DNA of 64,000 nucleotides from the NCBI GenBank assembly GCA_041690105.1, contig JAWLHX010000003.1, forward strand, positions 29,126 through 93,125, read 5' to 3'. Below the pieces are notes generated by a model, which had not been told where the DNA came from, made no database searches, and saw nothing but the letters and a program-made list of their open reading frames with translations. The stretch's first letter is position 1; each line of letters starts with the position of its first letter. Both the position numbers and the translations under genes were made by a program. This document shows positions 5,696 to 56,079 of this stretch, in pieces. This DNA is from Phycisphaerae bacterium (GTDB taxonomy: Bacteria > Planctomycetota > Phycisphaerae > FEN-1346 > JAACEH01).

Positions 5696-8071
5696 ATGCG
5701 TAACCAGCAGTTTTTAAACCACAAGTTGATTCATCGGTCAGTAAGTCGCCAGGCAGCAGCGTTTATTGCCGCCCTGCTGTCGCTGGTGCTGCTGCCTGAA
5801 CCTGCAACCGGCCAGATTCCTCTCCCCCCGCCCCCCGGGCATCCGCAAGGCCCTGCGGTGGCGGCACCAAGGGGGCCCAGCAACAATCTCAATACAAATG
5901 ATAAAAGCAACCCCAGCAACTCGCGCAGCACGGTTGACGCCAAAGAGCTTGCCAAAGCCATCGAAAAAGGCGCTAACTGGTTGCTCCAGCAGCAGTTGAA
6001 TGATGGCAGCATCAATGGCAGCGATGATGATACAGTTTTTGCCGCCATTGCAATGCTGGAGTGCGGGGCCACGGTGCGTTCGCCGGCAATTCAAAAAATG
6101 CTGGCCTACCTGGCCGCCCAGCGCAGCCGCGAGACGCGCTTTATTGCTCTGCGGGCAGAAGCCTTTGCCCTGGCCGCGGCAAGCGGAGGCCCGGCTGCCC
6201 GCCGCATATACGAACCGCTCGTAGCAGCCGATTTCAAAGTAATCCGCGAAAATCAGGACGAAAATGGCCTGTGGCAATATCGCGCCAGGCGAAATGCCGA
6301 CGTCGGGGTAACTTTCGATGTCGTGTGTGCAGTGCAATCGTGCGCCGCCGAAGGCTATCGCCTGCCCGATGCTGCCCTCCAGAACGTCATTGCTGCTTAC
6401 TTTTCGCTGCAGAACCGCAATGGTGGCTGGAGCTACAGTCCGGACGGGCCGGACCGGCAGATGAGTTTCCCCGACAGCACCATGAGCGCCCTTGCCTGCC
6501 TCATGGCCTACGGCCTCGACCCGAGCGGGACCGACGACGCCACCCGGCTCAACGACAAGCTGCAAACATCCATACAGTCGGGACTTACGTTCATGACAAA
6601 ATCGATCTCGCTGCGCGATGAAGCAAGGGGGCGGGACGATCGCGACCGAGGCTTCTATTCTCGTGCCTACATCATCGGCCGCATGCTCAAATACGTGGAC
6701 CTTGAGTCGCTGAGCAACGCCAAAATCGTTGCCGAGTGGGTGAATCCGGTAATGGCTCGCCAGCAGGACGATGGCCGCTGGCGCGGAGTCCGCGAGACGG
6801 CCTTCGTGCTCTACATGCTGGGCCAGCTCCGGCCGACGCCCATTATCGCCGAGATTACCGACACAACCAAGCCCCCCACCGCCAACCGCCTGCTGGTCAA
6901 CCAGACCAAAAGCCTGTCGCGGGCCCTGCCGCAACCTGTAACCTATTGCCGCGCAAGGCTTTCGGAGGACGAGCGGTACATGGACCTGCCCCTGATTGTG
7001 CTGGACGTGCCGGAGGACTGGAAACTGGCCGCCGAGGAGAGGCAGAACCTTATCGATTACGTGGCCGGTGGCGGAACGATTCTGCTGATTGCCCCCCTCC
7101 AGCAGCGCGAGGAGGCCGCCGCCCTGGCCGAAAAGCTGGCCGAGTTGTGGCCCCAGACGCCTCTGGAGGCCCTGCAGCGTAACGACCCCATGTGGACCGC
7201 TCGCGAGACGCCCAGCACAAAACCCATCTGCCATGGCCTCAGCGATGGCGTCCGCACGTTTCTGTTTGCCCTGAACAGGCACACGGCCATCGAGCTGGCT
7301 TTCGGCCGCTACGGTACGCGTGGCAGCAACATGGCCACCATCAACAACATTCTGGCCTATGCCTCCGAGGGCCGCTTCGAGTCCGGGCAGTTGCTGGCCG
7401 AAGAGCCTGCCGATACCGCCGAGCCGCAAATTGGCCCGCAGAAGATCGTGGCCATCGGGGCGGCGACGGCCGAAGAATCCGATTTTCAGAAGCTTGGCCT
7501 GCCCGTTGCTCCGTACAACGGTTTTGCCGCGGCCGCCGGCCTGTTGCCCGCCAGCGCCGGTGTGAAGGTGCTGGGGCCCAAAGCCATCAATGCCGCCGAT
7601 GAGAATCTGGGTCTGTGTGACCTGCTTTACGTGCCCATTTCGTCCAGCACGGATTTCAGTCAGGATGAGCTCGACGGCTTGAAGAAGTACATTGCCGAGG
7701 GCGGTTTCGTCTTCATCGAGGGCCGTGCCGGCGAGCTTGCCGCCGACCGTAACACGAAGAAAATCATCGACTCCCTTGGCCTGAAGGCCGAGAGCGTCCG
7801 CGACCACAGCCTGCTTTCCGGCCAGTTTGCCGACCCGGCCAGGGGCTACAACGTGCAGCAACTGGCCGTCCGGCAAGATGGCAAACTGCTCCCGGCCCGC
7901 AATACCGACCTCCGGGTGCTCAAATCCGGCGAGCTCATTGTCGGCGTTTACAGTCCGCTGGATCTGGTCGTCTCGGCCAGCGGCATACCCTGCTTCGGCC
8001 TCCGCGGCTACGCCACCAACGACGCCCGCCGCATACTGGCCAACCTGATTATCCACCGCACCACGCGCTGA
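5696..8071 (+). CDS. Large secreted two-domain protein: N-terminal prenyltransferase/squalene-cyclase-like alpha-toroid repeats, C-terminal DUF4159-like (class-I glutamine-amidotransferase-like fold) domains
   Basis: Signal-peptide-like N-terminus (AAFIAALLSLVLLPEPATG). KAIEKGANWLLQQQLNDGS and repeated GxW / Q-W motifs of the terpenoid cyclase/prenyltransferase repeat family. C-terminal LIVLDVPEDW...GGTILLIAP and YIAEGGFVFIEG blocks resemble DUF4159 / ThuA-like domains common in Planctomycetes. The antisense 772-aa ORF is a shadow. Confidence 0.6.
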   Translation: MRNQQFLNHKLIHRSVSRQAAAFIAALLSLVLLPEPATGQIPLPPPPGHPQGPAVAAPRGPSNNLNTNDKSNPSNSRSTVDAKELAKAIEKGANWLLQQQLNDGSINGSDDDTVFAAIAMLECGATVRSPAIQKMLAYLAAQRSRETRFIALRAEAFALAAASGGPAARRIYEPLVAADFKVIRENQDENGLWQYRARRNADVGVTFDVVCAVQSCAAEGYRLPDAALQNVIAAYFSLQNRNGGWSYSPDGPDRQMSFPDSTMSALACLMAYGLDPSGTDDATRLNDKLQTSIQSGLTFMTKSISLRDEARGRDDRDRGFYSRAYIIGRMLKYVDLESLSNAKIVAEWVNPVMARQQDDGRWRGVRETAFVLYMLGQLRPTPIIAEITDTTKPPTANRLLVNQTKSLSRALPQPVTYCRARLSEDERYMDLPLIVLDVPEDWKLAAEERQNLIDYVAGGGTILLIAPLQQREEAAALAEKLAELWPQTPLEALQRNDPMWTARETPSTKPICHGLSDGVRTFLFALNRHTAIELAFGRYGTRGSNMATINNILAYASEGRFESGQLLAEEPADTAEPQIGPQKIVAIGAATAEESDFQKLGLPVAPYNGFAAAAGLLPASAGVKVLGPKAINAADENLGLCDLLYVPISSSTDFSQDELDGLKKYIAEGGFVFIEGRAGELAADRNTKKIIDSLGLKAESVRDHSLLSGQFADPARGYNVQQLAVRQDGKLLPARNTDLRVLKSGELIVGVYSPLDLVVSASGIPCFGLRGYATNDARRILANLIIHRTTR

Positions 8072-8395
8072 CCGGCGGCCGTTGTCGTTCTAAAGCCCCC
8101 TGCACTGCAGGGGGATGTCGTTGCCGTTGCTTCTTTTGATTTAAACTCGCGGAGTTGCTGCGTTTCGATCCCCCGGCAATGCCGGGGGCTTCAAAAGGCC
8201 TTCGCCACGGTGGGCGTTGCCGTTGCCGCGGCCGTTGTCGTTCTAAAGCCCCCTGCACTGCAGGGGGATGTCGTTACCGTTGCTTTCTTTTGATTTAAAA
8301 CTCGCGGAGTTGCTGCGTTGCGATCCCCCGGCAATGCCGGGGGCTTCAAAGGCAACGGCAATGGCAAAGGCAACAGAAACGGGCCGAGGGGCCAG
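8072..8395. repeat. Tandem duplication (2 x ~150 bp) of a GC-rich two-hairpin intergenic repeat element (type 1)
   Basis: Unit GGCCGTTGTCGTTCTAAAGCCCCCTGCACTGCAGGGGGATGTCGTTGCCGTTGCTTCTTTTGATTTAAACTCGCGGAGTTGCTGCGTTTCGATCCCCCGGCAATGCCGGGGGCTTCAAA occurs at ~8077-8215 and ~8229-8365 at >90% identity. Contains two 9-bp-stem hairpins (CCCCCTGCA/TGCAGGGGG and CCCCCGGCA/TGCCGGGGG) and GTTGCCGTTG / CAACGGCAA runs. Confidence 0.8.
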
Positions 8396-13061: not shown

Positions 13062-13090
13062 AAACGATTCAGAGCCCCAATAAGTTCCCC
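13061..13090 (-). promoter_or_regulatory. Candidate ECF-type autoregulatory promoter (GGAAC-N17-CGTT) abutting the sigma-factor start; possible leaderless transcript
   Basis: Minus-strand reads GGGGAACTTATTGGGGCTCTGAATCGTTTATGAGTATGAGC: the AAC-N17-CGTT layout resembles ECF promoters, and the -10-like element directly precedes two ATGs. Confidence 0.25.
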
Positions 13091-13326
13091 GTGTGTGTTG
13101 CAGATGATGATGCCGGCCAACTATCTGCAGTCGGGAATTCTATGCCGCCCGGGCGGGCAAGGCAAACCGTTAATCAAAACTCCGTCAATCAAACGCACGC
13201 AGCGGGATGTGCTCCGCTGCGTGCGCCATCGGTTGGACCATGGCAACTTTCAACAGTGCCGGCTGAGGTGCCAGCAACAAGTTTCAGTCGCGCCACTCGT
13301 GCGACAGGTAAACTGGCGCGGGATAC

Positions 13327-14013
13327 TTAGTGATGAGCCGGCCTGGTGGCTGGGGCCGGTGCGTCATGGCCGGTTTTCTGGGCATCGAGCCGGGCCTGTT
13401 TCTCGGCATCGGTCAGGGCGTCCCACTTATCGGGGCAGCCGGCGCAGCAGAAGGCGATTGTCTGGCCCTTGTACTGCCGCGTCAGCTCGGGCTTTACCTT
13501 GTCAGGATCGATGCGGCCTTCCATGATCGGGCAAAGCTTGTTGGCCGGAGCGGCGGCATGGCGACCCATCGGGCAGTTCTTCATCTGCTCCTTCAGGCCG
13601 GTCATGACAGCCTGGGCCTTAACCAACTCAGCGGTCGCGGTCTGGGCATCGCCACCGGCGGCTGCCTTATGGGCCGAATTAATCAGCGTCTCGAGTTCGG
13701 CAATCTTTTTGTGCGGCGACATCGGACACTTCTGGCACTGCTCTCCTTCGCACTTTTTGGCGTCCTCGGCCTTGTCGCCATCGGCTTTAGCGGCCATCAT
13801 CGGACAACCCTTTTTGCCCTCGTCGGTGGCGGCCTTGGCCGGGCAACAGCCCTTTGCTTGCTCGGCCGCGCCTTCTTTGGCTACTGCCTGGTGTCCGCCG
13901 TGGCCTCTGGCCGCGGGTTCCACAGCACCGGTGCTGATGGTCCAGAAAGCGCCAATGGCCAGAGCCAAGGCGATCATGCTCAGCAGCATCATTTTCCCAT
14001 TCGGAATTCTCAT
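13327..14013 (-). CDS. Secreted metal-binding protein with Cys-Pro-Met (CPM) repeats and a C-terminal YHS/TRASH domain (putative copper-binding chaperone)
   Basis: Start chosen at internal ATG 14013 (GGAGG RBS 9 nt upstream; MRIPNGKMMLLSMIALALAIGAFW signal peptide). Motifs GCCPAK, GCPMMAAK, CQKCPMS, NCPMGRH and a C-terminal CPIMEGRIDPDKV...YKGQTIAFCCAGCPDKW (YHS-like). Divergent from the efflux operon. Confidence 0.6.
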   Translation of the reverse strand: MRIPNGKMMLLSMIALALAIGAFWTISTGAVEPAARGHGGHQAVAKEGAAEQAKGCCPAKAATDEGKKGCPMMAAKADGDKAEDAKKCEGEQCQKCPMSPHKKIAELETLINSAHKAAAGGDAQTATAELVKAQAVMTGLKEQMKNCPMGRHAAAPANKLCPIMEGRIDPDKVKPELTRQYKGQTIAFCCAGCPDKWDALTDAEKQARLDAQKTGHDAPAPATRPAHH

Positions 14014-22780: not shown

Positions 22781-23040
22781 CCCGTTCCTCTTCTCCTCCC
22801 GCCCTGAGCCCTGTCGAAGGGCTTGACGGGAGAGGAGTTTCTTTACACTTCTCCCTTGACGGGAGAAGGTGGACCGTAGGGCCGGATGAGGGTGCGGCCG
22901 TGGGCGCAAGAGCGAGCAATTTTCCGCGCAGCCGTCACCCCCACCTGTCTCCGGCATGTGCCGGAGACATCCTCCCCCGTCAAGGGGGAGGGGTTAGCGG
23001 CAACGGCAACGACGAACGGCAACGGCAATTGCTCTTGACA
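22781..23040. repeat. Type-2 GC-rich intergenic repeat element (copy A, with internal 40-bp duplication) plus CAACGGCAACG run
   Basis: Shares with 38750-38950: CCCGCCCTGAGC...CGAAGGGCTTGACGGGAGA...AGGTGGNCCGTAGGGCCGGATGAGGGTG...CACCCCCACCTGTCTCCG...CGGAGACATCCTCCCCCGTCAAGGGGGAGGGGTT...GGCAACGGC. Contains the hairpin CCTCCCCC-GTCAA-GGGGGAGG and the palindrome GTCTCCGGCATGTGCCGGAGAC. Confidence 0.75.
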
Positions 23041-32047: not shown

Positions 32048-33640
32048 TTACGAGACATACCTGGCATATTCCACCGCTCGCTTTTCGCGCAGGACGGTCA
32101 CCTGGATTTCGCCGGGGAAGGTCAGTTCGCTTTCGATCTTCAGGGCGATATCGCGGGCCAGTTTCATCGTCTCGGTGTCGGTGCTGCGATTGGCGTCCAC
32201 CATGACGCGGATTTCCCGGCCGGCCTGGATGGCAAAGGCCGACTCCACGCCCTGCTCGCGGAACGCCATGGCAATGGACTCCAGCTTCTCCAGTCGCTGC
32301 AGGTACCGTTCCAGCGATTCGCGGCGGGCGCCCGGTCGCGAGGCGCTGACGGCATCGGCCGCACTTACTATCCAACTGTAAATGTTGGTCGTGGGCTTCA
32401 GGTCGTGATGAGCGCTGGCTGCATCGACCACCTCCGGCGGTTCGCCGTAGCGGCGGCACAGGTCGCCGCCAATTTCCGGATGGCCGCCTTCCACCTCGTG
32501 ATCGACAGCCTTGCCGACGTCGTGCAGCAATCCGCAGCGGGTGGCCAACTGCGAATCCAGCCCAAGTTCCTCGGCTATCATGCCTGACAGGTGGGCTACC
32601 TCCACGGCGTGCTGCAGAACATTCTGCCCGTAGCTGGTGCGGAACTGCAGGCGTCCCAGCAGGGGGATAAGCTTGTTGTTGAGGCCGCGGATTTTCAGAT
32701 CGTGGACGACCTGCTTGCCGCCCTCGAGTATCTGCTGGTCAACCTCCTTGCGTGTCTCGGCCACCACCTCCTCGATGCGGGCGGGGTGAATGCGACCGTC
32801 AACTATCAGCTTGCTCATGGCCCGGCGGCCAATTTCGCGTCGCACGCTGTCGTGCCCGCTGACAATGACCACGCCCGGCGTGTCGTCAACTATCACGTCA
32901 ACTCCGGTGGCTTTCTCGAAGGCCCGGATGTTGCGACCTTCGCGGCCAATGACGCGGCCCTTCATCTCGTCGCTCGGAATATCGACCGACGAAACCGTGG
33001 CTTCGCTGGTGATGTCGCTGGCCATCCGCTGGATGCTCTGCACAATGATGTTGCGGGCCCGCTCTTCGCCCTCTTCGTTGGCCCGGTCGACGTGGTGGCG
33101 GATAATCTCGCCCTCTTCGTGCTCCATCTCCTGCGAAATCCGGGTAATAAACAACTCGCGGGCCTGCTCCTGACTCAGTCCGCTCAGTTCCTGCAGCTTC
33201 TGGGCCTGCTCGCCCAGGGCCTGCTGAACCTTCTGTTCGTTCTCCTGCAACTGCTGTTCCCGATCGCTCAGGCGGCGTTCGATGCTCTCGATGGTCTTTT
33301 CTTTGCGCAGCAGCAGTTCGCTCTGCTCGGTAACGCTGTCCTCGCGTTTGCTCAGGCGGCGCTCGAGTTCCTTGAGTTCGTTTCGGGTGCCTTCGGTCTC
33401 GCGCTGGAAGCTGTCCTTGCTCTTCAGCAGCCAGTCGCGGGCTTCAAGCTCGGATTCCTTCTTGATCTGATCGGCATCTCGCTTGGCCTGATCGACAATA
33501 CTCTGGGCCGACTGGTGCTTTTGTTTGAACTCGTTAAGTTTGCCTTTGGTATACAGCCAGAGTGCAACCAGGGCGACGACGATGATGGCCGCCAGGCTGG
33601 AGACAACGATAAGAGGCACATTTGCAACGGTGGTCAGCAT
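32048..33640 (-). CDS. rny: Ribonuclease Y
   Basis: N-terminal TM helix, long coiled coil, KH domain ([25 protein letters not shown]) and HD domain ([19 protein letters not shown]...LLHDVGKA); 530 aa. Confidence 0.9.
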
Positions 33641-34641
33641 GGATTCGATCCCCTTTCTGCCGCGCGGGGCCCGTTATGGGCAGCGCTTCGGCCGTGCCAG
33701 TGTGGCAGAGGATCGCCGGCGATGGGGCAGGGGCTTTTGGCTGAAGCTCGAAAAATCGCTGTGGGAGCGACCACTTGAGCAGGCCAATTAACTGCTACCG
33801 TCTCGCATTCTGGAGATGGAGGCCTAACAGTCGCCAGGAGATAGACTTAGGCATCATGCAACAAGGATTAATGGACGGTCGCCTCGATCTTTGCCGCAGC
33901 TATCGGGCTGCAGCAACCCCGCAGTTCCCCCGGCGATAACGTCTCCGCCGCAGAGGATTGGTGTCGGAAAGATGCGGTACGATTGCGACTTCAATGGATC
34001 CGGCCCCTTTTGATCAGTGGTTTCAGGTACAGAAACCGTTTATGAGGGCTTTACTTTTGAATTACGTCCATTTACTCGCTGATGATCATTAAATCTATCG
34101 TGCGGCGGTTGCAGCTCCAGCCCCAGGTTCGCCGGCCGCGGCTCCTGTATATCAGAATACCGTTGCCCGGGCGAACTTCAGCGACTCCGCGAATTGGCCG
34201 AATCGGCCCGGCGGCGTCGATTAACCAAGTTCGGACGCGGTGTCGCGGCATTCTGCCGCCAAGCCCCTGGCAAATTCCAGAGCGGGCCCAAATCCGAACC
34301 TTATTTAGAACAACCAGACAAATCGAATCAAACTTTATGACTTTTTAGTGTCTACGTCAAGCGCAAAGCGGCCACAGGCCGGCGGCGGGTGGGCCGCAGG
34401 GAGTGTCGGCGGTTACCTGCTTGCCGCTCAATGCCCGGCTGCGACTGTGTTTGATGCTTGTCAGCAGGGCGGCGGAACCCTACAATCCACGTATTCCAAG
34501 CGTGTGTTCGGGGTCGAATAATATATCCGCCGGCTGCTGCCGGATGCGGGCGGTTCTGTCGGCTCTGCTTTCAATTTGAGCAAATCCGGTGCTTTTTGCG
34601 GGGGCCTGCCGTGTGCCTCGCCTGGAAAGAGATGAAAAACG

Positions 34642-35493
34642 ATGAGTTTTCGCACCCTGATGATAGGCGACATTGTCGGCAAACCCGGCCGCAGTGCAGT
34701 AGAAGCAATGGTTGGCAACCTGATCAAGAGCGAGCAGATCGACCTGGTAATTGCCAACGCCGAGAACAGTGCCGCCGGCTCCGGAATTACTCCTTCAATA
34801 TATGATGGCCTTCGCCAGGCCGGTGTGGACGTCATTACCATGGGCGACCACTGCTACCGGAAGAAGGAATCGATCCCCCTTTACGAGACCAAGGACCGCT
34901 TGCTGCGCCCGGGTAACCTGCCTGAGGTGGCGGCCGGACGCGGCTGGTGCGTGATCGAGACCCGCAACGGCTCGCACGTGGCGGTCATCAACATGCAGGG
35001 TCGCACCTTCATGAAGCCCATCGATTGCCCATTTGCGGCCATGGATCGGGCCCTGGAGGAGATCGGGCAGATGACGCAGCTGGTGTTTGTCGATTTCCAT
35101 GCCGAAGCCACCAGCGACAAGATGGCCATGGGCTGGTTTCTGGATGGCCGGGTGACGGCCCTGGTGGGCACACATACCCATGCCCAGACGGCCGATGAGC
35201 GGGTGCTGCCGGGCGGCACGGCCTTTATCAGCGACCTGGGCATGAGCGGGCCGTACGACAGTGTGCTGGGCCGCCGCAAGGACCGTGTTATCCGCCATTT
35301 GACTACGGGCATGCCGACCTTCTTCGAGGTTGCCACCGGCGACGTACGCGTCTGCGGGGCGATTATCACCGCCGATGAGCAGACGGGGCGGGCTACGAGC
35401 ATTCGCCGTATAAATCTCTCGTACGTGGCCGAAGCCGACCAGGCCTACGACGCTGCCGACGGCAAGGGTGGCGGCGGAGGAGACGAGATCTGA
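34642..35493 (+). CDS. ymdB: YmdB-family metallophosphoesterase (2',3'-cyclic-nucleotide phosphodiesterase-like, TIGR00282)
   Basis: MSFRTLMIGDIVGKPGR...ANAENSAAGSGIT...GDHCY...GTHTHAQTADE metallophosphatase motifs typical of YmdB; classic genomic partner of rny (divergent here). Confidence 0.8.
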   Translation: MSFRTLMIGDIVGKPGRSAVEAMVGNLIKSEQIDLVIANAENSAAGSGITPSIYDGLRQAGVDVITMGDHCYRKKESIPLYETKDRLLRPGNLPEVAAGRGWCVIETRNGSHVAVINMQGRTFMKPIDCPFAAMDRALEEIGQMTQLVFVDFHAEATSDKMAMGWFLDGRVTALVGTHTHAQTADERVLPGGTAFISDLGMSGPYDSVLGRRKDRVIRHLTTGMPTFFEVATGDVRVCGAIITADEQTGRATSIRRINLSYVAEADQAYDAADGKGGGGGDEI

Positions 35494-38749: not shown

Positions 38750-38950
38750 CTGTCGTTACCCTTCTCACCCGCCCTGAGCTCCGCCGAAGGGCTTGACGGG
38801 AGAAGGTGGCCCGTAGGGCCGGATGAGGGTGAGGTTGTTGAGAGGGCGAAGAGCTTTCCTCGCGGCCGACACCCCCACCTGTCTCCGCTTCGCGGAGACA
38901 TCCTCCCCCGTCAAGGGGGAGGGGTTTAACGGCAACGGCTGAGGCTGAGA
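38750..38950. repeat. Type-2 GC-rich intergenic repeat element (copy B) between ispA and dxs
   Basis: ~85% identical over shared blocks to 22781-23040, including the CCTCCCCC-GTCAA-GGGGGAGG hairpin, the CACCCCCACCTGTCTCCG block and the terminal AACGGCAACGGC. Confidence 0.75.
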
Positions 38951-39018
38951 GGGCTTGGCCGCCATGACTATTATGTGCCTGATCTGGGGCACTCATTAAC
39001 AGGTAAGCGAGCATAAGG

Positions 39019-40941
39019 TTGATTCTTGAACAGATAAAATCTCCAGAGGACCTTGGCGGGCTGACTGCGGCTCAGTTGCAGAGTCTGGCAGGCGAGATCC
39101 GTCAGCGGATAACCGACGTCGTGGCTCAGACCGGTGGTCATCTGGCTAGCAATCTGGGTGTGGTCGAACTTACCCTGGCCCTGCATCGGGTGTTCGACTT
39201 CAAGCAGGACCACCTGGTTTTCGATGTCGGTCATCAGTGCTACACTCATAAACTGCTGACGGGTCGCGAGGCCGAATTCAACACTCTGCGTCAGGAGGGC
39301 GGGCTGAGCGGCTTCCCGAACCGGCGCGAGAGTCCGCTCTACGATCGGTTTACCACCGGCCATGCGGGGGTCAGCATTTCGACCGCCCTGGGGTTGGCCC
39401 TGGCCGATAAGGCCGCCGGCCGGCCGCATCGTACGGTGGCGGTCATTGGCGATGGGGCCCTGGGCAGCGGCGTGGCTCTGGAAGGCCTGAACCATGCCGG
39501 CAGCGTGAAGGCGAATCTGCTGGTTATCCTGAATGACAATAAGATGTGCATCAGCGGGACGGTGGGGGCTCTGGCTCATGCCTTCACCCGGGCCCGGACG
39601 AGCGATTTGTATCGCGACTTCAGCAAAGAGGTCCGGCGGATGGTGCAGACCATGCCGGTCATCGGCAGCCAGTTGCGGCAAACGCTATCGACGGTAAAGG
39701 ATGCCATCAAGGACGTGATTGTGCCGGACCATGCTTTCGAGCACTTCGGCTTTCGGGTTCTGGGGCCGGTCAACGGTCATAATCTGCGGGAGTTGCTGCG
39801 GACGCTGGAAGAGGTGCGGACGATAAGCGGCCCGATAATGCTGCACGTCTGCACGGAGAAGGGTCACGGATTTGACCCTGCGGTGCGCAATCCGGCCGAT
39901 TATCATAGCGCTTCGCCCTTCATCGAGCAGAATGGCAAGGTTGTTCCGCGTGCGGCGGCCTCACAACAACCGGCCTGGGGCGATGCGGCTGCTCGGATCA
40001 TTCTGGAGATGGCTTCTGCGGATGAGCGGGTAATGGCCATAACCGCGGCCATGCCGGCCGGCACGGGGCTTTGTGCCTTCGAGGAGCAGTATCCGGAGCG
40101 TTTTTTCGATGCCGGCATAGCCGAGAGCCACGCCGTGGCCATGGCCGCTGGTCTGGCGGCCGGCGGCATGCGTCCGGTGTGCGCCATTTATTCCACCTTC
40201 CTGCAGCGATCGTACGATCAGTTGTTCCACGAGCTTGCCCTGAACGAGAATCTGCCTGTGCTGATGCTGGTGGACCGGGCCGGGCTGGTTGGGGCCGACG
40301 GCATGACGCACCAGGGGCTTTACGACATTGCCTACATGCGGAGTCTGCCGAACCTTGTTCTGGCGGCTCCGGCCGATGAGGGGGAGCTTGGGGGTTTGAT
40401 TCGCCTGGGGCTGGAGATTGAGCAGTCGATGGCCATTCGTTATCCGCGTGACGTTGTTCCTGCCGGCGACCTGTGCCAGGCCGAGGGCGAGCATCCGATG
40501 CGCCTGGGTCGGGCGGCAGTCATTCGCCCTGGTACCGACGGGGCTATTGTGGCCTATGGTTCGACCGTTCCGGCGGCCCTTGGTGCTGCTGACTTACTGG
40601 CCGCCGAGGGGCTGAAGGTGGCGGTCATCAGCGGGCGTTTTGCCAAACCGCTGGACGAGGATTTGATGGCCGAACTGGCCGAGGTGCAGCCCTGGCTGAT
40701 AACGGTTGAGGACGGTTGCCAGGCGGGTGGTTTCGGCAGTGCCGTTCTGGAATCGCTTCAGCGGCGGGGCTTGGCCGGCAAGCTGGCCGATATTGTGGCT
40801 GTGCCGGATGAGCTTGTTGAGCATGCCTCGCGGGGCGTATTGCTGGAACGATTTGATATGACGGCCACGGGCCTGGCGCGGCGGGCCAGGCGGGTAATGG
40901 CCGCAAGCGACGACGTAAAGCAGTCCGGCGACAACAAATAG
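39019..40941 (+). CDS. dxs: 1-deoxy-D-xylulose-5-phosphate synthase
   Basis: N-terminal Dxs signature (ILEQIKSPEDL...GGHLASNLGVVELTLALHRVFD...DHLVFDVGHQCYTHKLLTGR), TPP-binding GDG motif, 640 aa. Confidence 0.9.
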   Translation: MILEQIKSPEDLGGLTAAQLQSLAGEIRQRITDVVAQTGGHLASNLGVVELTLALHRVFDFKQDHLVFDVGHQCYTHKLLTGREAEFNTLRQEGGLSGFPNRRESPLYDRFTTGHAGVSISTALGLALADKAAGRPHRTVAVIGDGALGSGVALEGLNHAGSVKANLLVILNDNKMCISGTVGALAHAFTRARTSDLYRDFSKEVRRMVQTMPVIGSQLRQTLSTVKDAIKDVIVPDHAFEHFGFRVLGPVNGHNLRELLRTLEEVRTISGPIMLHVCTEKGHGFDPAVRNPADYHSASPFIEQNGKVVPRAAASQQPAWGDAAARIILEMASADERVMAITAAMPAGTGLCAFEEQYPERFFDAGIAESHAVAMAAGLAAGGMRPVCAIYSTFLQRSYDQLFHELALNENLPVLMLVDRAGLVGADGMTHQGLYDIAYMRSLPNLVLAAPADEGELGGLIRLGLEIEQSMAIRYPRDVVPAGDLCQAEGEHPMRLGRAAVIRPGTDGAIVAYGSTVPAALGAADLLAAEGLKVAVISGRFAKPLDEDLMAELAEVQPWLITVEDGCQAGGFGSAVLESLQRRGLAGKLADIVAVPDELVEHASRGVLLERFDMTATGLARRARRVMAASDDVKQSGDNK

Positions 40942-41053: not shown

Positions 41054-41905
41054 ATGAAAACGGTCAGGAAAATCCTGGTTGTCGGGCACCGGTCGCGGCC
41101 GCAGGTATCGGGCACGATTGACGAGCTGCGCCCGTTGCTGGAATCCGAGGGTGAGGTCGAGGTGCTCGACCTGGAGGATCTGGAGGGTCGGCGGGGTAAT
41201 CTTGTGGCTGATTTGGCCCTGATCGTCGGGGGCGACGGTTCGATTCTCAGGGCGGCCCGCAGCCTGGCTCCGGCGGGCGTGCCCTGCATGGGCGTGAACA
41301 TGGGGCGGCTGGGTTTTCTGGCCAGCTATCAGAAGTCGGACATGGCTGAATCTTTTCCGGGGCTGATGAACGGCGGCGGGCGGCGGGTTGAGCGGATGAT
41401 GCTGAACGTGCGCATCGAGTCGGCGGGCGGCAACTGCCAGGAGATTCCGGCCCTGAACGACGTTCTGATCAGCCATGGCGAGCGCCATCGGATGATCGGG
41501 CTGGTGCTTGACATCGATGGCCAGTCGGTGGCCACGTTCCATGGCGATGGAGCGCTGGTCAGCACGCCGACTGGTTCGACGGGGCATAATCTGGCTGCCG
41601 GCGGGCCGATTCTGGAGTCCCGGCTGGAGTCGATGGTGATAACGCCGGTTTGTCCGCACACGCTCAGCAATCGTTCGATAGTGATTGGCGGGCAGTCCTG
41701 CGTGCGCGTGAGCCTGGCCAGCCATGATCGCGAAGCCACTTGCATTGTCGATGGGCAGGTTCAGCTGCCGATTGTGCGGGGCGACGTGGTGCAGATAGAG
41801 AAGGCCGTGGAGAAGTTCGTACTGATCGAGAACCCTCGTCGGACGGGCTACGACACGTTGCGCGAGAAGCTTCACTGGAGCCAGGCTCCGCATTACAGCA
41901 AGTGA
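41054..41905 (+). CDS. nadK: NAD+ kinase
   Basis: GGDGSILRAAR and NMGRLGFL motifs, ~280 aa. Confidence 0.85.
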   Translation: MKTVRKILVVGHRSRPQVSGTIDELRPLLESEGEVEVLDLEDLEGRRGNLVADLALIVGGDGSILRAARSLAPAGVPCMGVNMGRLGFLASYQKSDMAESFPGLMNGGGRRVERMMLNVRIESAGGNCQEIPALNDVLISHGERHRMIGLVLDIDGQSVATFHGDGALVSTPTGSTGHNLAAGGPILESRLESMVITPVCPHTLSNRSIVIGGQSCVRVSLASHDREATCIVDGQVQLPIVRGDVVQIEKAVEKFVLIENPRRTGYDTLREKLHWSQAPHYSK

Positions 41906-41918
41906 GGCAGAAGAGGAG

Positions 41919-42218
41919 TTGGTGCTGATGGCAGAAATTAGAATCAGTGGTTATTACTGCAAGGGCTGCGGGCTGTGCATCGATGCCTGCCCGTCGCAGT
42001 GCCTGCGCATAAGTTCGTCGCTGAATGACACCGGCGTACAGGTGGCCGAGGTAGTCGATGGCGGCATATGCAGGGGCTGCCTGCAATGTCATGCCGTCTG
42101 CCCGGATGCCGCAATCGAGATCCTGGTGGCTGCCAGAAAATCGCAGAAGGCGGCCGCATCGGCCGGCAGTGTCGGCGGGGGACAGAAGAAGTCGGAGGGA
42201 GCCGCCGGTGATAGATAA
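41919..42218 (+). CDS. 2-oxoacid:ferredoxin oxidoreductase delta subunit (2x[4Fe-4S] ferredoxin)
   Basis: Two CxxCxxCxxxCP motifs (CKGCGLCIDACP; CRGCLQCHAVCP); first of four por-like genes. Confidence 0.75.
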   Translation: MVLMAEIRISGYYCKGCGLCIDACPSQCLRISSSLNDTGVQVAEVVDGGICRGCLQCHAVCPDAAIEILVAARKSQKAAASAGSVGGGQKKSEGAAGDR

Positions 42219-43287
42219 TGGTTCCGCAACAAGCGAACTGATTCTGATGGCCGGTAACGTGGCCGCGGCCGAGGGCGCTGTGCGTGCCGGCTGCCGGCAT
42301 TACTTCGGCTATCCGATAACGCCGCAAAACGATCTGCCGGAATACATGTCGTCGCGCATGCCGGAGATTGGCGGCACGTTCATCCAGGCCGAGAGCGAAT
42401 TGGCAGCCATCAGCATGGTGCACGGTGCGGCCGCGGCCGGTGCTCCAGCAATGACCAGCAGCAGCAGTCCGGGTATCAGCCTGAAGCAGGAAGGGCTGAG
42501 CTACATGGCTGGCAGCCAGTTGCCCTGCCTGCTTGTGAACGTGCAGCGTGCGGGGCCGGGTCTGGGCGACGTGCGATGTGCCCAGGGCGATTATTTTCAG
42601 GCCACCCGGGGCGGCGGTCACGGCGATTACTATCATCCGGTGCTCGCCCCATATACGGTGCAGGAGACTTACGACCTGGCCTACGAGGGCCTGCTGATGG
42701 CCATGCGTTACCGCACGCCGGTCATGATTCTGTCCGATCAGCAGTTAGGCCAGATGATGGAGCCGGTGGAACTGAGCCCGATGCGTCCGCTGCCTGACAA
42801 ATGGCCTGATTGGGCTTTGACCGGGGCTGCCGGCGGGCGTCCGCGAAATTACATCCACAGTTACTGCGGGCGGCCCGGCGAGCTGGTGGCTCTTAATCGG
42901 ACGCTGATGGATAAGTGCGAGCAGATGAGCCGGGACCTGTTGCGATTTGAATCGGTTGCTACAGACGACGCCGAACTTGTTTTAGTGGCTTATGGCACCA
43001 GTGCCCGGCTGGCCAAGGCGGCGGTGGCTCGCTGCCGGGCGGCCGGGTTGAAGGTTGGTCTTTTGCGGCCGATTACCTTGTGGCCCTTCCCGAGCGATGA
43101 GCTTGCAGCCCTGGCCGAAAAGGGCAAGCGCATGCTGGTGGTTGAGATGAGTTGGGGCCAGATGGTGCAGGACGTGCGGCTGGCGGTTAATGGTGTGGTG
43201 TCGGTTGGTTTGGAAAACACCTTTGGCGGCGATGTGCCGAGCATCGGCAGCATTGTTCAGCGGATTAAGCAGGAACTTGGCGCTTAG
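42208..43287 (+). CDS. 2-oxoacid:ferredoxin oxidoreductase alpha subunit
   Basis: Probable GTG start ~42208 (the track ORF begins further upstream in the same frame, overlapping the delta gene). ELILMAGNVAAAEGAVRAGCRHYFGYPITPQNDL is the canonical PorA/KorA/VorB N-terminus. Confidence 0.75.
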   Translation: MIDNGSATSELILMAGNVAAAEGAVRAGCRHYFGYPITPQNDLPEYMSSRMPEIGGTFIQAESELAAISMVHGAAAAGAPAMTSSSSPGISLKQEGLSYMAGSQLPCLLVNVQRAGPGLGDVRCAQGDYFQATRGGGHGDYYHPVLAPYTVQETYDLAYEGLLMAMRYRTPVMILSDQQLGQMMEPVELSPMRPLPDKWPDWALTGAAGGRPRNYIHSYCGRPGELVALNRTLMDKCEQMSRDLLRFESVATDDAELVLVAYGTSARLAKAAVARCRAAGLKVGLLRPITLWPFPSDELAALAEKGKRMLVVEMSWGQMVQDVRLAVNGVVSVGLENTFGGDVPSIGSIVQRIKQELGA

Positions 43288-43289
43288 TG

Positions 43290-43575
43290 GTGCTTGCGGC
43301 GGTAGATTAAGAGGCAAGGCAACGGCAGAAGAAACTTGCGTTTTTTGGCGTGCGGACATGGCAGATAAGCACCCACAAACGAGTTTGTGGGTGGCACCCG
43401 CGGGGGATTAATACGGCAACGGCAGAAGAAACGGCGTCCCCCGGCAGTGCCGGGGGCTTCAACGGCAACATCAACGGCAACGGCAACAGCAGCAACAATC
43501 GCAGAGCAGCAATAATCGCAGAGCAGCGGCAGTCGCAGAGATGCAGCAGCGCTTGGTATGGCGGTGGCAATTAGC
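43290..43575. repeat. ~290-bp repeat-rich intergenic region inside the por operon (type-1 hairpin fragment, direct repeats, 11-bp-stem hairpin)
   Basis: GCACCCACAAACGAGTTTGTGGGTGGC perfect hairpin; CAACGGCAGAAGAAAC x2; CCCCCGGCAGTGCCGGGGGCTTCAACGGCAAC (type-1 hairpin); AATCGCAGAGCAGC x2; CAACGGCAAC runs. Confidence 0.75.
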
Positions 43576-43585
43576 CTGATTCGAG

Positions 43586-44356
43586 GTGGTTATGTCGGAA
43601 GATATGGTATTAAAGGCAGGTCGTCCGCAGTCGATGTCGGAAGCCCGGACTCATTATTGCCCCGGTTGCGGCCATGGCATCGCCCATCGGCTGATAATGG
43701 AACTGGTTGACGAGATGGACCTGCGCGAGCGCATAATCGGCATAGCGCCAGTGGGCTGCGCGGTGGTGGCTTATCATTACTTTGACCTGGACATGTGCGA
43801 GGCCGCTCATGGCCGGGCTCCGGCGGTGGCCACGGGCATAAAGCGGGTGCATCCGGACAAGCTGGTATTCAGTTACCAGGGCGACGGCGATCTGGCGGCC
43901 ATCGGCACCAACGAAATAATTCATGCGGCCAACCGCGGCGAGCTGATAAGCGTGATCTTCGTCAACAATACCTGCTACGGGATGACCGGCGGCCAGATGG
44001 CTCCGACCACGATTGTGGGCCAGAAGACCAGCACCACGCCGCACGGTCGTAACCTGCTGAGCGAGGGGCCGCCGTTGCGCGTATCGGAGATGCTGGCCCA
44101 GTTGGAGCGGGTGGTTTATGCCGAGCGCTGCATGCTGACTACGGCCCGTGAGATCGGCAAGGCCAAGAAGGCCATTGCCCGCAGTTTGCGCTGCCAGATG
44201 GAAGGCAAGGGCTTCAGCATTGTTGAATTGCTGTCGGCCTGCCCGACCCACTGGCGTATGAACCCGAGCGATGCCCGCGATTACATTGAATCGCGACTGA
44301 CGAAGGATTTTCCGCTGGGCGTGATCAAAAATACTGCCTGGCCGGATGAGGCCTGA
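43586..44356 (+). CDS. 2-oxoacid:ferredoxin oxidoreductase beta subunit (TPP-binding)
   Basis: HYCPGCGHGIAHRL cysteine motif and TPP-binding GDGD region typical of PorB/KorB. Confidence 0.8.
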   Translation: MVMSEDMVLKAGRPQSMSEARTHYCPGCGHGIAHRLIMELVDEMDLRERIIGIAPVGCAVVAYHYFDLDMCEAAHGRAPAVATGIKRVHPDKLVFSYQGDGDLAAIGTNEIIHAANRGELISVIFVNNTCYGMTGGQMAPTTIVGQKTSTTPHGRNLLSEGPPLRVSEMLAQLERVVYAERCMLTTAREIGKAKKAIARSLRCQMEGKGFSIVELLSACPTHWRMNPSDARDYIESRLTKDFPLGVIKNTAWPDEA

Positions 44357-44471
44357 ACATGTTGTGCCCCGCCCCGGGGAGGGTCGCGGGAGGGGGGGCG
44401 GCAAGGGCCGCCGGCGGCGCAATGGCGGCTGATGCGAAGAGGAATTTCAGGTAAACAAGCGGCCGAATCAG

Positions 44472-45056
44472 GTGCCGACGAGAGACGATAGTGAAGGACG
44501 GATCAGCATGGACGAACGTATTCTTCTGGCTGGGGCAGGTGGGCAGGGGGCGCTGACAATCGGCAAGTTTATCGCCGAGCTGCTGATGAGCAAGCACCGG
44601 GTGACCTGGTTTCCGAGCTATGGGGCGGAGGTCCGCGGGGGCACGGCCCACTGCCATGTGGTGATCAGCGATGATGAGATTGCCAACCCGGTGGTTGAGG
44701 AGGCGACGGCCCTGCTGATGATGAATCAGCCGAGTTACCTGCGCTTTCGCCAGCGACTGCAGAGCGATGGCGTGCTGGTGACGAATTCGTCGATGATTGT
44801 GCTCGATCCGCCAACGCCGGCATCGGTTGTGGTGGAGGTTGCAGCCTCGGAGCTGGCCAGCAAAATGGGCGACATCCGGGTGGCGAACATGATCATGCTC
44901 GGGGCCCTGAACCAGGTGAAGCCGCTGATGACGGTGGACGAGCTTAACGGCATGGTCGACAAAGTGCTCGGCACATCACCATCGAAAGCCCGCATAAGTG
45001 ACCTGAACAAACAGGCCTTTCTGGTAGGGCAGAAAGAAGCAGCGGTGGAGCTTTAA
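44472..45056 (+). CDS. 2-oxoacid:ferredoxin oxidoreductase gamma subunit
   Basis: ILLAGAGGQGALTIGKFIAELL N-terminus typical of the POR gamma domain. A likelier start is the internal ATG ~44508 (GAAGGA RBS). Confidence 0.75.
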   Translation: MPTRDDSEGRISMDERILLAGAGGQGALTIGKFIAELLMSKHRVTWFPSYGAEVRGGTAHCHVVISDDEIANPVVEEATALLMMNQPSYLRFRQRLQSDGVLVTNSSMIVLDPPTPASVVVEVAASELASKMGDIRVANMIMLGALNQVKPLMTVDELNGMVDKVLGTSPSKARISDLNKQAFLVGQKEAAVEL

Positions 45057-45069
45057 CGGGCATGGGCTG

Positions 45070-45400
45070 ACTTCGTCAGACCATGGCACAGATTTATCCT
45101 TCTTCTAACCATCTTCCGTTTGGCCTTTGAAGCCCCCGGCACTGCCGGGGGATTCGAATGTCAGCAAACTCCGCGGGTCCAAAACAAAGAAGCAACGGCA
45201 ACGACATCCCCCTGCAGTGCAGGGGGCTTTAGAACGACAACGGCCGCGACAACGGCAAGGGCCTCCCGCGGCGAATTGTTTTAAGCCCCCGGCACTGCCG
45301 GGGGATCGAACGTCAGCATTCTCTGCAATTCGAATGAGCACCCGGCGGCACAAAACATTAACGTCAACAGCAACAATCAACGGTCGCGGCGGCGGTAGAG
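45070..45400. repeat. Type-1 two-hairpin repeat element in reverse orientation, plus a second partial copy
   Basis: 45121-45250 is the reverse complement (~85-90% identity) of the 8077-8215 unit (GAAGCCCCCGGCACTGCCGGGGGAT...AAGAAGCAACGGCAACGACATCCCCCTGCAGTGCAGGGGGCTTTAGAACGACAACGGCC). A second hairpin copy lies at ~45285-45310 (AAGCCCCCGGCACTGCCGGGGGATCGAACG), and CAACAGCAACAATCAACGG runs follow. Confidence 0.8.
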
Positions 45401-53901: not shown

Positions 53902-54600
53902 ATGAAGTATGCAACTGGGGCCGTCGGAATCGTGTTGTTGCTGCTGGTAGCAACTGGCAGCGCTTCCGGGGCTTTGACCGACTGGGGCAGCGGTCAGGTC
54001 AGAATGGTAACTGACGCCGATGAAGGGTTCATGCCGGGGCGTGAGATTTTACAGGCCTGGCACAAATACGATGCCGGCACGCACTATTTCCGGATTGACC
54101 TGGAGACGGCGCCCATGGGGCCGCCGCATTTGCCGCCGAGCTTTGCCGGCATTTATGGCTTTGCCATCAATACGGACCTTGCCAGCGGGGCCGACGGCTT
54201 TCATCCGTACCTGGCTTATGCCCCGAACGTGCAGAACATCGATTATCTGATCGATGCCCACTATGAATCGTTTTCGCCGTACCCGAATCCGGCCCAGTTG
54301 CTGTACAGCCATTATCACGACTGGGAGGATACGGCGTTTGCGGTCGAGCCGCTGGACAGCGTTGGCGGGCAGTTCCAGCGCAGCGGACCGAGCACGCTGG
54401 AGTGGTCCATTGCGGATGATCTGATCGGCAGCCCGGGAGCCACGAGGTTCAGCTGGTGCGCCTACAGTCTGGATGCCGGCAGCGAGACGGCCAAGTATGA
54501 CCTGGCCTGCTCGTTCATACCGGAACCTCTGACAATGCTGGCTTTCGGTATGGGGCTGGCTGGCGTGGGCGGTTATGTGCGCCGCAGGATTAAAGGCTGA
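53902..54600 (+). CDS. PEP-CTERM-anchored secreted protein, paralog A (uncharacterised ~200-aa domain)
   Basis: Signal peptide (VGIVLLLLVATGSASGA); C-terminal IPEPLTMLAFGMGLAGVGGYVRRRIKG PEP-CTERM sorting signal; ~55% identical to paralog B. Confidence 0.75.
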   Translation: MKYATGAVGIVLLLLVATGSASGALTDWGSGQVRMVTDADEGFMPGREILQAWHKYDAGTHYFRIDLETAPMGPPHLPPSFAGIYGFAINTDLASGADGFHPYLAYAPNVQNIDYLIDAHYESFSPYPNPAQLLYSHYHDWEDTAFAVEPLDSVGGQFQRSGPSTLEWSIADDLIGSPGATRFSWCAYSLDAGSETAKYDLACSFIPEPLTMLAFGMGLAGVGGYVRRRIKG

Positions 54601-55380: not shown

Positions 55381-56079
55381 ATGAACAAACTGCGTGTACT
55401 GACAACTTTGATTGTGCTGTTGCTGATGTGTAGCCCATCGTGGGCGGCGTTGACAGATTGGGGCGTTGGAGCTGTTGAGCATGTTGCCGATCCGGATGAG
55501 GGCTTCATGGCCGGCCGCGAAATTCTTAATGCGTGGCACAAGTACGACGTGGAGAGCCAGATGCATTTCTTCAAGATGGAGCTGAAGGCTGCTCCGATGG
55601 GGCCTGTCCATCTGGAGCCGAGCTTCGCCGGCATCTACGGATTTGCCCTGAATACCGACCTTGGCACGGGTATTGACGGCTTTACGCCGGGCTTGACCTA
55701 TGCTCCGAATGTGCCTTCGATTGACTATTTGATTGACGCGCATTACGAGTACGCGGGCATTCTGGCTGCTCCGCCTGCCTTCCAGGTTGCCCATTATCAT
55801 GAATGGGACGAGCCGCTTTTTGTTACCGAGAATCTGCTCTCGATTGGCGGCGACTATGCACGCACCGGCAAAGTTCTGGAATGGGCCGTGCCAGACAGCC
55901 TGATCGGCAACCCCGGTTCCGAGCGGTTCTCCTGGTGCGCCTACACGCTTGACGGCGGCAGCGAGACGGCCAAGTATGACGTGGCCTGCTCGGTTATTCC
56001 GGAGCCGCTGACCATGGCTGGTCTTGGTCTGGGGCTGGCCGGCGTAGCGGGCTACCTGCGTCGTCGCAAAGCGGCCTGA
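55381..56079 (+). CDS. PEP-CTERM-anchored secreted protein, paralog B
   Basis: Start at ATG 55381 (MNKLRVLTTLIVLLLMCSPSWAALTDWG; AGGGGGA RBS); the track ORF begins at 55018 in the same frame. C-terminal IPEPLTMAGLGLGLAGVAGYLRRRKAA. Shared blocks with A: ALTDWG, EGFMxGREILxAWHKYD, PSFAGIYGFAxNTDL, IDYLIDAHYE, RFSWCAYxLDxGSETAKYD. Confidence 0.75.
   Translation: MNKLRVLTTLIVLLLMCSPSWAALTDWGVGAVEHVADPDEGFMAGREILNAWHKYDVESQMHFFKMELKAAPMGPVHLEPSFAGIYGFALNTDLGTGIDGFTPGLTYAPNVPSIDYLIDAHYEYAGILAAPPAFQVAHYHEWDEPLFVTENLLSIGGDYARTGKVLEWAVPDSLIGNPGSERFSWCAYTLDGGSETAKYDVACSVIPEPLTMAGLGLGLAGVAGYLRRRKAA

Follow-up and report, generated by a model that had tools for sequence, protein, structure and literature searches.

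The Correia elements of Neisseria are miniature inverted-repeat transposable elements (MITEs) that are inserted inside operons and add hairpins to the mRNA between co-transcribed genes. A repetitive extragenic palindromic (REP) sequence between malE and malF of E. coli and the hairpins of the Rhodobacter puf operon, the latter conserved, have been shown experimentally to act as intercistronic stabilisers through which expression differs along an operon. REPs are defined as extragenic, palindromic stem-loops of ~14-40 nt with a shared consensus and many copies per genome, and those located between the genes of polycistronic operons form a recognised class that is reported to stabilise the upstream mRNA (PMC12306157). 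The context in which REPs were discovered in 1982, as cited in the same article, was that of intercistronic copies in operons. In two described REP superfamilies, one end of the stem bears four unpaired nucleotides, GTAG or CGTC (PMC3733652), and the REP doublets termed REPINs are, in the outline given by Bertels and Rainey (2011; PMC3116915), inverted pairs mobilised by REP-associated tyrosine transposases (RAYTs). Here we describe a repeat-laden spacer between the alpha and beta genes of a 2-oxoacid:ferredoxin oxidoreductase (vor) operon, located in a 64,000-nt stretch of contig JAWLHX010000003.1 from a Phycisphaerae bacterium (the whole stretch is referred to below as the window). The spacer is probably an accretion of lineage-specific intergenic repeats, similar to REPs and to bacterial interspersed mosaic elements (BIMEs), in a junction that was probably short originally. 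The repeat family is new but its kind is known.

The original prediction, made from the letters of this DNA, had placed a repeat-rich region splitting the two genes at 43290-43575. The spacer does split them and is slightly wider (43288-43591). Rather than one element it is a mosaic, in which two or more dispersed palindromic units are combined with local duplications and tandem slippage. Its features, in window coordinates, are as follows.

43288-43591, plus strand: alpha-beta intercistronic spacer, 304 bp, the largest among 84 orthologous junctions examined
43318-43335, plus strand: copy a of the 18-nt direct repeat GGCAACGGCAGAAGAAAC, whose AGAAGAAAC motif also lies 5' of the family-1 hairpin in the related genome L081
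43341-43346, plus strand: T6 run preceded by a weak stem of 5 bp whose loop is 16 nt, a poor intrinsic-terminator candidate that was unflagged by the terminator scan
43370-43402, plus strand: family-2 unit, a 24-nt perfect palindrome CACCCACAAAC-GA-GTTTGTGGGTG (43370-43393) followed by the conserved tag GCACCCGCG; 53.7 bits with model R2
43393-43412, plus strand: GGCACCCGCGGGGGATTAAT, inverted repeat I1, 80% complementary to 43437-43451
43415-43432, plus strand: copy b of GGCAACGGCAGAAGAAAC, which forms the 5' flank of the family-1 unit
43424-43489, minus strand (canonical orientation): family-1 unit, a 19-nt perfect palindrome CCCCCGGCAGTGCCGGGGG (43438-43456) with conserved flanks AACGGCGT and CTTCAACGGCAAC; 60.6 bits with model R1
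43460-43491, plus strand: hexamer tandem array (CAACGG)x5.3, identified by Tandem Repeats Finder (TRF)
43488-43545, plus strand: 17-nt tandem repeat AGCAGCAAYAATCGCAG in ~3 copies (3.1 at 43488-43540; TRF), which includes AATCGCAGAGCAGC twice and belongs to a U-poor, A/C-rich, unstructured tract that the tandem repeats form in the 3' third of the spacer

Shuffle controls gave ~0 expected matches for each of the listed repeats. The 18-nt repeat GGCAACGGCAGAAGAAAC has four matches at up to 3 mismatches against 0.07 expected, and its two spacer copies are perfect and 97 bp apart. The predicted direct repeats were thus recovered, AATCGCAGAGCAGC lying within the 17-nt tandem array, and the predicted CAACGGCAAC runs correspond to the hexamer array. 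The perfect hairpin with an 11-bp stem also stood up: the two 11-nt arms at 43370-43393 are 100% complementary around a 2-nt centre, and as RNA they fold into a stem of 10 bp capped by a CGAG loop (dG -15 kcal/mol; z -3.7 relative to shuffles). The second hairpin (43438-43456) has 9-bp arms and a 1-nt centre (dG -18.5 kcal/mol, z -2.4). It had been called a fragment of a type-1 hairpin. The palindrome itself is complete at 19 nt, and it is the longer flanking unit that is only partly present. The family-1 unit is ~60-75 nt long and consists of the GC-rich palindrome within GGCAAC/CAACGG hexamers, with AGAAGAAAC before it. The remaining spacer consists of the 18-mer duplicated 97 bp apart, the 6-mer repeated five times and the 17-mer repeated three times. 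By comparison with 45141-45160, GGCACCCGCGGGGGATTAAT may be the decayed remnant of one half of a family-1 hairpin, in reverse orientation. All nine window occurrences of the hexamer-derived AACGGCAAC are intergenic, intergenic DNA making up 13.5% of the window, and a literature search for the hexamer matched primer sequences only.

Alpha and beta genes normally abut, as the original prediction had stated. We compared 73 orthologous loci from a contig scan, all at ≤63% identity, for which starts were assigned automatically and gaps are approximate. The median alpha-beta gap was 4 bp, with gaps of at least 100 bp in 7/73 loci and a maximum of 279 bp. Palindromes mark the long gaps outside the clade as well, in the form of two GTAG-tagged hairpins in L014 and of inverted repeats spanning the spacer in L023, L030, L048 and L072. 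Ten relatives with an identical delta-alpha-beta-gamma order have the following alpha-beta gaps.

L091: 16 bp
L096: 16 bp
L083: 20 bp
L094: 25 bp
L081: 37 bp (81% beta identity to the window)
L098: 59 bp
L082: 70 bp (84% beta identity to the window)
L097: 89 bp
L093: 112 bp
L092: 159 bp

In a neighbour-joining tree the window groups with L082 and L081, and the remaining five relatives included form a second clade. The spacer repeats are absent from the alpha-beta junction of these two nearest relatives. The original prediction had proposed a comparison with related operons, in which the same spacer in close relatives, without repeat similarity to other loci, would have spoken for a conserved regulatory region; this is not the pattern found. 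Its suggestion of an element inserted into the operon holds in that the nearest relatives have gaps of 70 and 37 bp without the repeats and the hairpin families occur elsewhere, but the spacer is a mosaic and not a single element.

L092 and L091 share 92% alpha identity, yet L092 carries ~143 extra nucleotides directly after the alpha stop codon, comprising a pair of 24-nt palindromes within an outer stem, and in addition a family-1 unit. Because the 16-nt spacer of L091 matches that of the outgroup L083, L092 gained its insert (the L091/L092 spacers were compared by eye, as MAFFT misaligned their 3' ends). The family-1 copies of L092 and the window have opposite orientations and are therefore independent. 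L093 and L097 have still other palindromes in this junction, and other junctions are expanded as well: beta-gamma in L083 (170 bp), delta-alpha in L091 (144 bp, with two hairpins) and nadK-delta in L092 (157 bp). As judged by comparison of these junctions, related genomes have independently filled the alpha-beta and other operon junctions with different palindromes.

Both hairpin units of the spacer can be assigned, by similarity, to families present at other, non-orthologous intergenic sites in this genome and its relatives. The window has eight copies of the family-1 hairpin at three intergenic sites (8096, 8170, 8249, 8325, 43438, 45133, 45208 and 45286) against 0.03 expected. The covariance model R1 recovers exactly these eight copies, with the spacer copy scoring highest. 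The spacer sequence 43437-43489 matches 8324-8376 at 89% identity over 53 nt and 45123-45152 at 97% over 30 nt. More generally, 16 of the 19 perfect hairpins in the window with a stem of at least 8 bp are intergenic. The two other family-1 sites, for which no strand is assigned, are mosaics.

8082-8357: four family-1 hairpins in a 153-bp tandem duplication, with alternating orientation and stem variant; BIME/REPIN-like
45119-45318: three family-1 hairpins (45133, 45208 and 45286), 3' of the gamma gene and between convergent genes

At both sites the stem variants CCCCCGGCA and CCCCCTGCA alternate, as do the orientations, and the linkers are conserved. The 153-bp duplication is of a two-hairpin unit (region 8075-8376) and sits 3' of a gene that ends at 8071. 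An inverted copy of this unit lies 37 kb away at 45103-45320, with 62 nt 100% complementary and 77 nt 94% complementary, and both are between convergent genes.

The family-1 module is also present in L081, L091 and L092. In L091 and L092 the flanks are as in the window (GCCGTACAAG, stem, AYGCCGTTGCCGTT) while the stems differ (CCGCCGCCA and a 10-bp variant), and L089 likewise combines shared flanks with another stem. A scan of metagenome contigs with the exact family-1 pattern matched seven contigs (GC 0.67-0.71), one of which, L089, shares the AACGGCAACGGCGT-hairpin-CTTCAACGGCAA grammar of the spacer. In three metagenome contigs (L084, L086 and L088) the same 19-nt hairpin is followed by (CCGCAAT)n and not (CAACGG)n, so the hairpin seems tied to short tandem repeats generally. 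Fifteen aligned copies from four sources have invariant AG, CC, CA-N-TG, GG and A positions, and four stem positions vary on both sides; this set was picked for perfect pairing, so the covariation statistic is circular. A fairer test, using the flanks alone as the query, found eight fully palindromic inserts in 155 kb of clade loci plus the window; the 839 kb of loci from other lineages yielded none. No G-U pairs were found in the copies recovered by searches that demanded perfect pairing. This suggests that the palindrome is kept at the DNA level rather than that an RNA fold is under selection. The flanks read GAAG, AAAG, CAAG, TAAG and TGAG, with GTAG in a single metagenomic copy (L087). Orientation relative to the upstream gene was 7 versus 3 in a hand tally, which is not informative. 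At two intergenic sites of L092 (937-1018 and 7410-7500), a family-1 unit is accompanied by a palindrome with the canonical GTAG tag, TGTAGGGGCRGACCCCCGCGTCYGCCC, which suggests BIME-like composites mixing tagged and untagged hairpins.

The family-2 architecture is common to the window, L092, L093, L090 and L084 and comprises a 10-11-bp perfect stem (CA...TG), a C-R-A-G loop and a 3' GCACCC(G)CG tag. Model R2 found the spacer copy as the only one in the 64-kb window, further members only in loci of the window's clade, and no match in 80 loci of other lineages (including two Pirellulales; ~840 kb). In L081, the closest relative whose flanking sequence was available, the contig opens with CCACAAACAAGTTTGTGGGTGGCACCC (L081 1-27), which is identical to window 43373-43399 at 26 of 27 positions. 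This copy is located 5' of nadK and not between alpha and beta, and the region upstream of the window's own nadK has no such family-2 hairpin. Downstream of its gamma gene, L081 carries AGAAGAAAC-N6-T-CCTCCGGCAGTGCCGGGGG-CTTTAA...AACGGCAGC...TGGCACCC, a composite as in window 43424-43470 that includes the 18-mer motif. Because both hairpins and the AGAAGAAAC motif are at non-orthologous sites in L081, they are dispersed repeats. A sigma-54 reading of TGGCAC in the family-2 tag was rejected by eye, since the GG-to-GC spacing misfits and no TTGC follows.

The units resemble REPs in being short, GC-rich palindromes at gene 3' ends or within operons. The eight family-1 copies and the family-2 copy lie between open reading frames (ORFs), form stem-loops of 19 and 24 nt, respectively, and share a consensus (the invariant positions of family 1; the CRAG loop and GCACCC tag of family 2). 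Copy numbers, counted in the window only, are eight per 64 kb for family 1 and one per 64 kb for family 2, to which the near-identical L081 copy can be added. The mosaics at 8082-8357 and 45119-45318, with alternating orientation and conserved linkers, are BIME-like, and by analogy a role as an mRNA-decay barrier would be expected. There are also differences. The window units lack the GTAG and CGTC tetranucleotides; their 5' flank is mostly NAAG or NGAG (AG invariant) and their 3' flank starts with A. The spacer copy does read GCGT-CCCCC on the plus strand but has neither the A-T first stem pairs nor the loop of 4-5 nt that characterise the CGTC families. The stems pair perfectly (9 bp around a 1-nt centre; 11 bp around a 2-nt centre), identical flanks accompany several stem variants, the units are set in (GGCAAC)n hexamer arrays, no RAYT was seen in the window, and the host is a planctomycete (Phycisphaerae-like).

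Measured against the outline of REPINs cited above, the inverted hairpin pairs ~75 nt apart at 8096/8170, 8249/8325 and 45133/45208 are similar, as is the alpha-beta insert of L092, an inverted doublet of two 24-nt palindromes with an outer stem. The spacer copies, in contrast, are singlets, the stems of doublet partners differ, and the window has no RAYT. As small non-autonomous repeats between co-transcribed genes the units also resemble Correia-type MITEs, while the spacer has no demonstrable terminal inverted repeats or defined target duplication. A stable hairpin 3' of the upstream cistron in a polycistronic mRNA is shared with malE-malF and puf, which offer a model for how the spacer might act; unlike the conserved puf hairpins, the spacer is absent from its nearest relatives.

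We consider that the spacer is most likely tolerated, largely neutral repeat DNA and not a module selected for the operon. Small non-autonomous palindromic elements, copied or transposed, would have supplied the units, and replication slippage would have expanded the tandem repeats. Because no transposase lies in the window, we can only infer the mechanism of mobility. The operon presumably remains one transcript, with beta translated from its own Shine-Dalgarno sequence and without coupling to alpha; the insert may be tolerated because beta owns a ribosome-binding site. A REP-like effect on mRNA decay is possible by analogy. Any effect of the hairpins would then be like that of enterobacterial intercistronic REPs, a block to 3'-to-5' decay or weak attenuation, with delta-alpha favoured over beta-gamma.

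Several observations weigh against accretion of REP-like repeats. The closest genome in the searched collections apart from the source has 84% beta identity, so the insertions are undatable and there is no strain-level presence/absence comparison. Significant similarity elsewhere in the window is restricted to 43430-43489 of the spacer, and no Y1/RAYT (IS200-like) transposase domain was found among the ~47 ORFs of the window. Among 11 genomes (the window and its ten relatives), four bear a family-2-like hairpin, in sense orientation, between alpha and beta, and this copy is the sole one seen in the window and in L093, which hints that the placement of family 2 in alpha-beta gaps is non-random. 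The clade could carry an undescribed system of perfect palindromes, with stems that shift by fully compensated substitutions, fixed flanks and loops (NAAG...A; CRAG loop plus GCACCC tag) and units in (GGCAAC)n arrays, whose repeated arrival in the same orientation in the vor alpha-beta junction is not due to chance but reflects targeted insertion or a selected RNA-processing or stability module for subunit ratios. We consider this unlikely. The original prediction had raised a related alternative, that of a structured intercistronic region modulating subunit stoichiometry. Here the hairpins and the A/C-rich tract would set the delta-alpha to beta-gamma ratio. The route could be processing by RNase Y together with a block to exonucleases, partial termination, or the loading of Rho onto 300 nt of untranslated RNA. 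The two local hairpins are indeed very stable (z -3.7 and -2.4), and the tract 43457-43552 is A/C-rich and unstructured, with a C/G ratio of at least 1 and a T fraction of 0.08 that falls within the lowest 0.14% of 90-nt windows. The window, L092 and L093 have sense hairpins with the C-R-A-G loop and GCACCC tag between alpha and beta, and L097 has a similar one there, with a C-A-A-G loop and without the tag; stems vary yet all recovered copies are perfect palindromes (the searches required perfect pairing); and the genome encodes RNase Y and YmdB. The hairpin is absent, however, from 7 of 10 relatives, including the window's two closest and L092's sister L091, the same hairpin stem is found 5' of nadK in L081, and relatives have palindromes equally in delta-alpha, beta-gamma and nadK-delta junctions. 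The all-Watson-Crick stems, in copies selected for perfect pairing, also suggest a DNA-level palindrome. The whole 321-nt region folds worse than shuffles (z +1.36), structure being limited to the two hairpins, and a search of Rfam at the gathering score and at E ≤ 10 gave no meaningful match (the best E-values, 2.8 and 4, were to irrelevant families). With no Rfam match and no such spacer in the two nearest relatives, the region does not qualify as a known cis-regulatory RNA. Neither hairpin is followed by a T run, so neither has the form of an intrinsic terminator. A selected control module thus seems rather unlikely, and the predicted regulator is not supported by these data.

We regard a single MITE-like insertion as very unlikely. 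The perfect 18-nt repeats at 43318 and 43415 flank a segment that is dissimilar to the one that follows, and could be read as a target-site duplication around a 79-bp insert bearing the 24-nt hairpin. The 79-bp segment has no terminal inverted repeats of the kind expected of a MITE, however, and 18 bp is unusually long for a target-site duplication. The 18-mer, made up of AGAAGAAAC and hexamers, belongs to the flank of the family-1 unit in L081 and at 8363-8380, so it is better read as a partial second unit, and such an insertion would leave the family-1 unit and the tandem arrays unexplained. That the spacer holds a gene or signal of its own (an internal promoter for beta-gamma, a small RNA or a small ORF) is highly improbable. 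ORFs of 74 aa (plus strand) and 87 aa (minus strand) do span it, but their translations are low-complexity and repeat-derived, with no Shine-Dalgarno-like sequence evident before the ORF starts. A promoter and terminator scan of 43288-43591 flagged nothing, including no plus-strand sigma-70-like promoter (planctomycete promoters may differ), and the region has no Rfam match and is unconserved in relatives. It is more improbable still that a repeat-driven misjoin put foreign repeats between alpha and beta. Repeats do break assemblies, and the L081 contig ends within the same hairpin; against this, the flanks are collinear with the conserved dxs-nadK-delta-alpha-beta-gamma order, alpha and beta are intact to their ends, the repeat copies in the spacer differ from other copies in loop and flanks, and relatives independently show the same phenomenon.

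The accretion reading makes this a concrete case, in a poorly studied phylum, of REP/BIME-like repeats colonising the interior of an essential-looking metabolic operon, with the same junctions refilled independently across related genomes. Annotation of spacers of this kind as regulators or small genes should be avoided. The repeats, which break short-read assemblies, could be used as strain markers. Should the hairpins prove to govern mRNA decay, this operon would offer a natural setting in which to ask how enzyme subunits made in equimolar amounts cope with, or take advantage of, uncoupled translation.

The genes and the ribosome-binding site on either side of the spacer are as follows.

42208-43287, plus strand: alpha subunit gene (VorB-type), Pfam POR_N and PFOR_II, stop codon TAG at 43285-43287; start uncertain
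43583-43589, plus strand: Shine-Dalgarno-like GAGGTGG, 2 nt 5' of the beta ATG, read from the sequence
43592-44356, plus strand: beta subunit gene (thiamine pyrophosphate-binding), Pfam TPP_enzyme_C, ATG at 43592

The window has a GC content of 0.615 and the conserved gene order dxs (39019-40941), NAD kinase (41054-41905), delta, alpha, beta and gamma. The Pfam domains (2x[4Fe-4S] in delta, POR_N/PFOR_II in alpha, TPP_enzyme_C in beta and POR in gamma) identify a four-subunit 2-oxoacid:ferredoxin oxidoreductase operon. Alpha matched the NCBIfam VorB subfamily at 479 bits (cut-off 399), while beta had only sub-threshold scores with NCBIfam families of beta subunits (at best 116.6 bits, where the cut-off is 402). 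The longest alpha ORF begins at 42058 and would overlap the delta gene by ~160 nt (42058-42218). The lengths of alpha in relatives (353-372 aa) suggest a start near 42208, which would leave an 11-nt overlap with the delta stop, as in L081. Beta is 100% identical to protein P0001 in the NCBI-derived collection, which is from the source contig itself, and the closest named homologues are from metagenome-assembled genomes (MAGs) labelled Planctomycetes/Planctomycetota and Phycisphaerae. The beta-gamma junction of the window (44357-44507) is also long, at 115-151 bp depending on the gamma start (GC 0.69). It has G-runs and no family-1 or family-2 unit, and the beta-gamma junctions of relatives range from 10 to 170 bp. 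Upstream, RNase Y (minus strand) and YmdB (plus strand) are encoded within 32048-35493, ~1 kb apart (33641-34641) with no ORF of at least 100 aa between them. The order ymdB-xseA-...-dxs-nadK-vor is conserved in L092 and L093.

Other repeats were noted in the window. An isolated perfect hairpin with a 12-bp stem, CGCACGCAGCGG-8 nt-CCGCTGCGTGCG, lies at 13194-13225 in the intergenic region 13062-13345 and is a member of neither family. Two opposite-strand ORFs without Pfam matches contain a 188-nt direct repeat (54397-54584 and 55876-56063; 76% identity); probably either one of the ORF calls is wrong or these are diverged paralogous segments. A composite repeat of ~200 nt is present in two copies (22798-23030 and 38768-38956), with segments 82-95% identical, one copy separating genes of the same direction and the other lying in a divergent promoter region. 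It contains three perfect hairpins (CTTCTCCC...GGGAGAAG; TGTCTCCG...CGGAGACA; CCTCCCCCGTCAAGGGGGAGG) and terminal GGCAACGGC runs. Similar hairpins, CCCTCTCCC...GGGAGAGGG-TGGCC, are present in L093, L094 and L096, and a CCCTCCCCCGTCAAAGGGGGAGGG hairpin is located in the alpha-beta gap of an unrelated MAG (L047).

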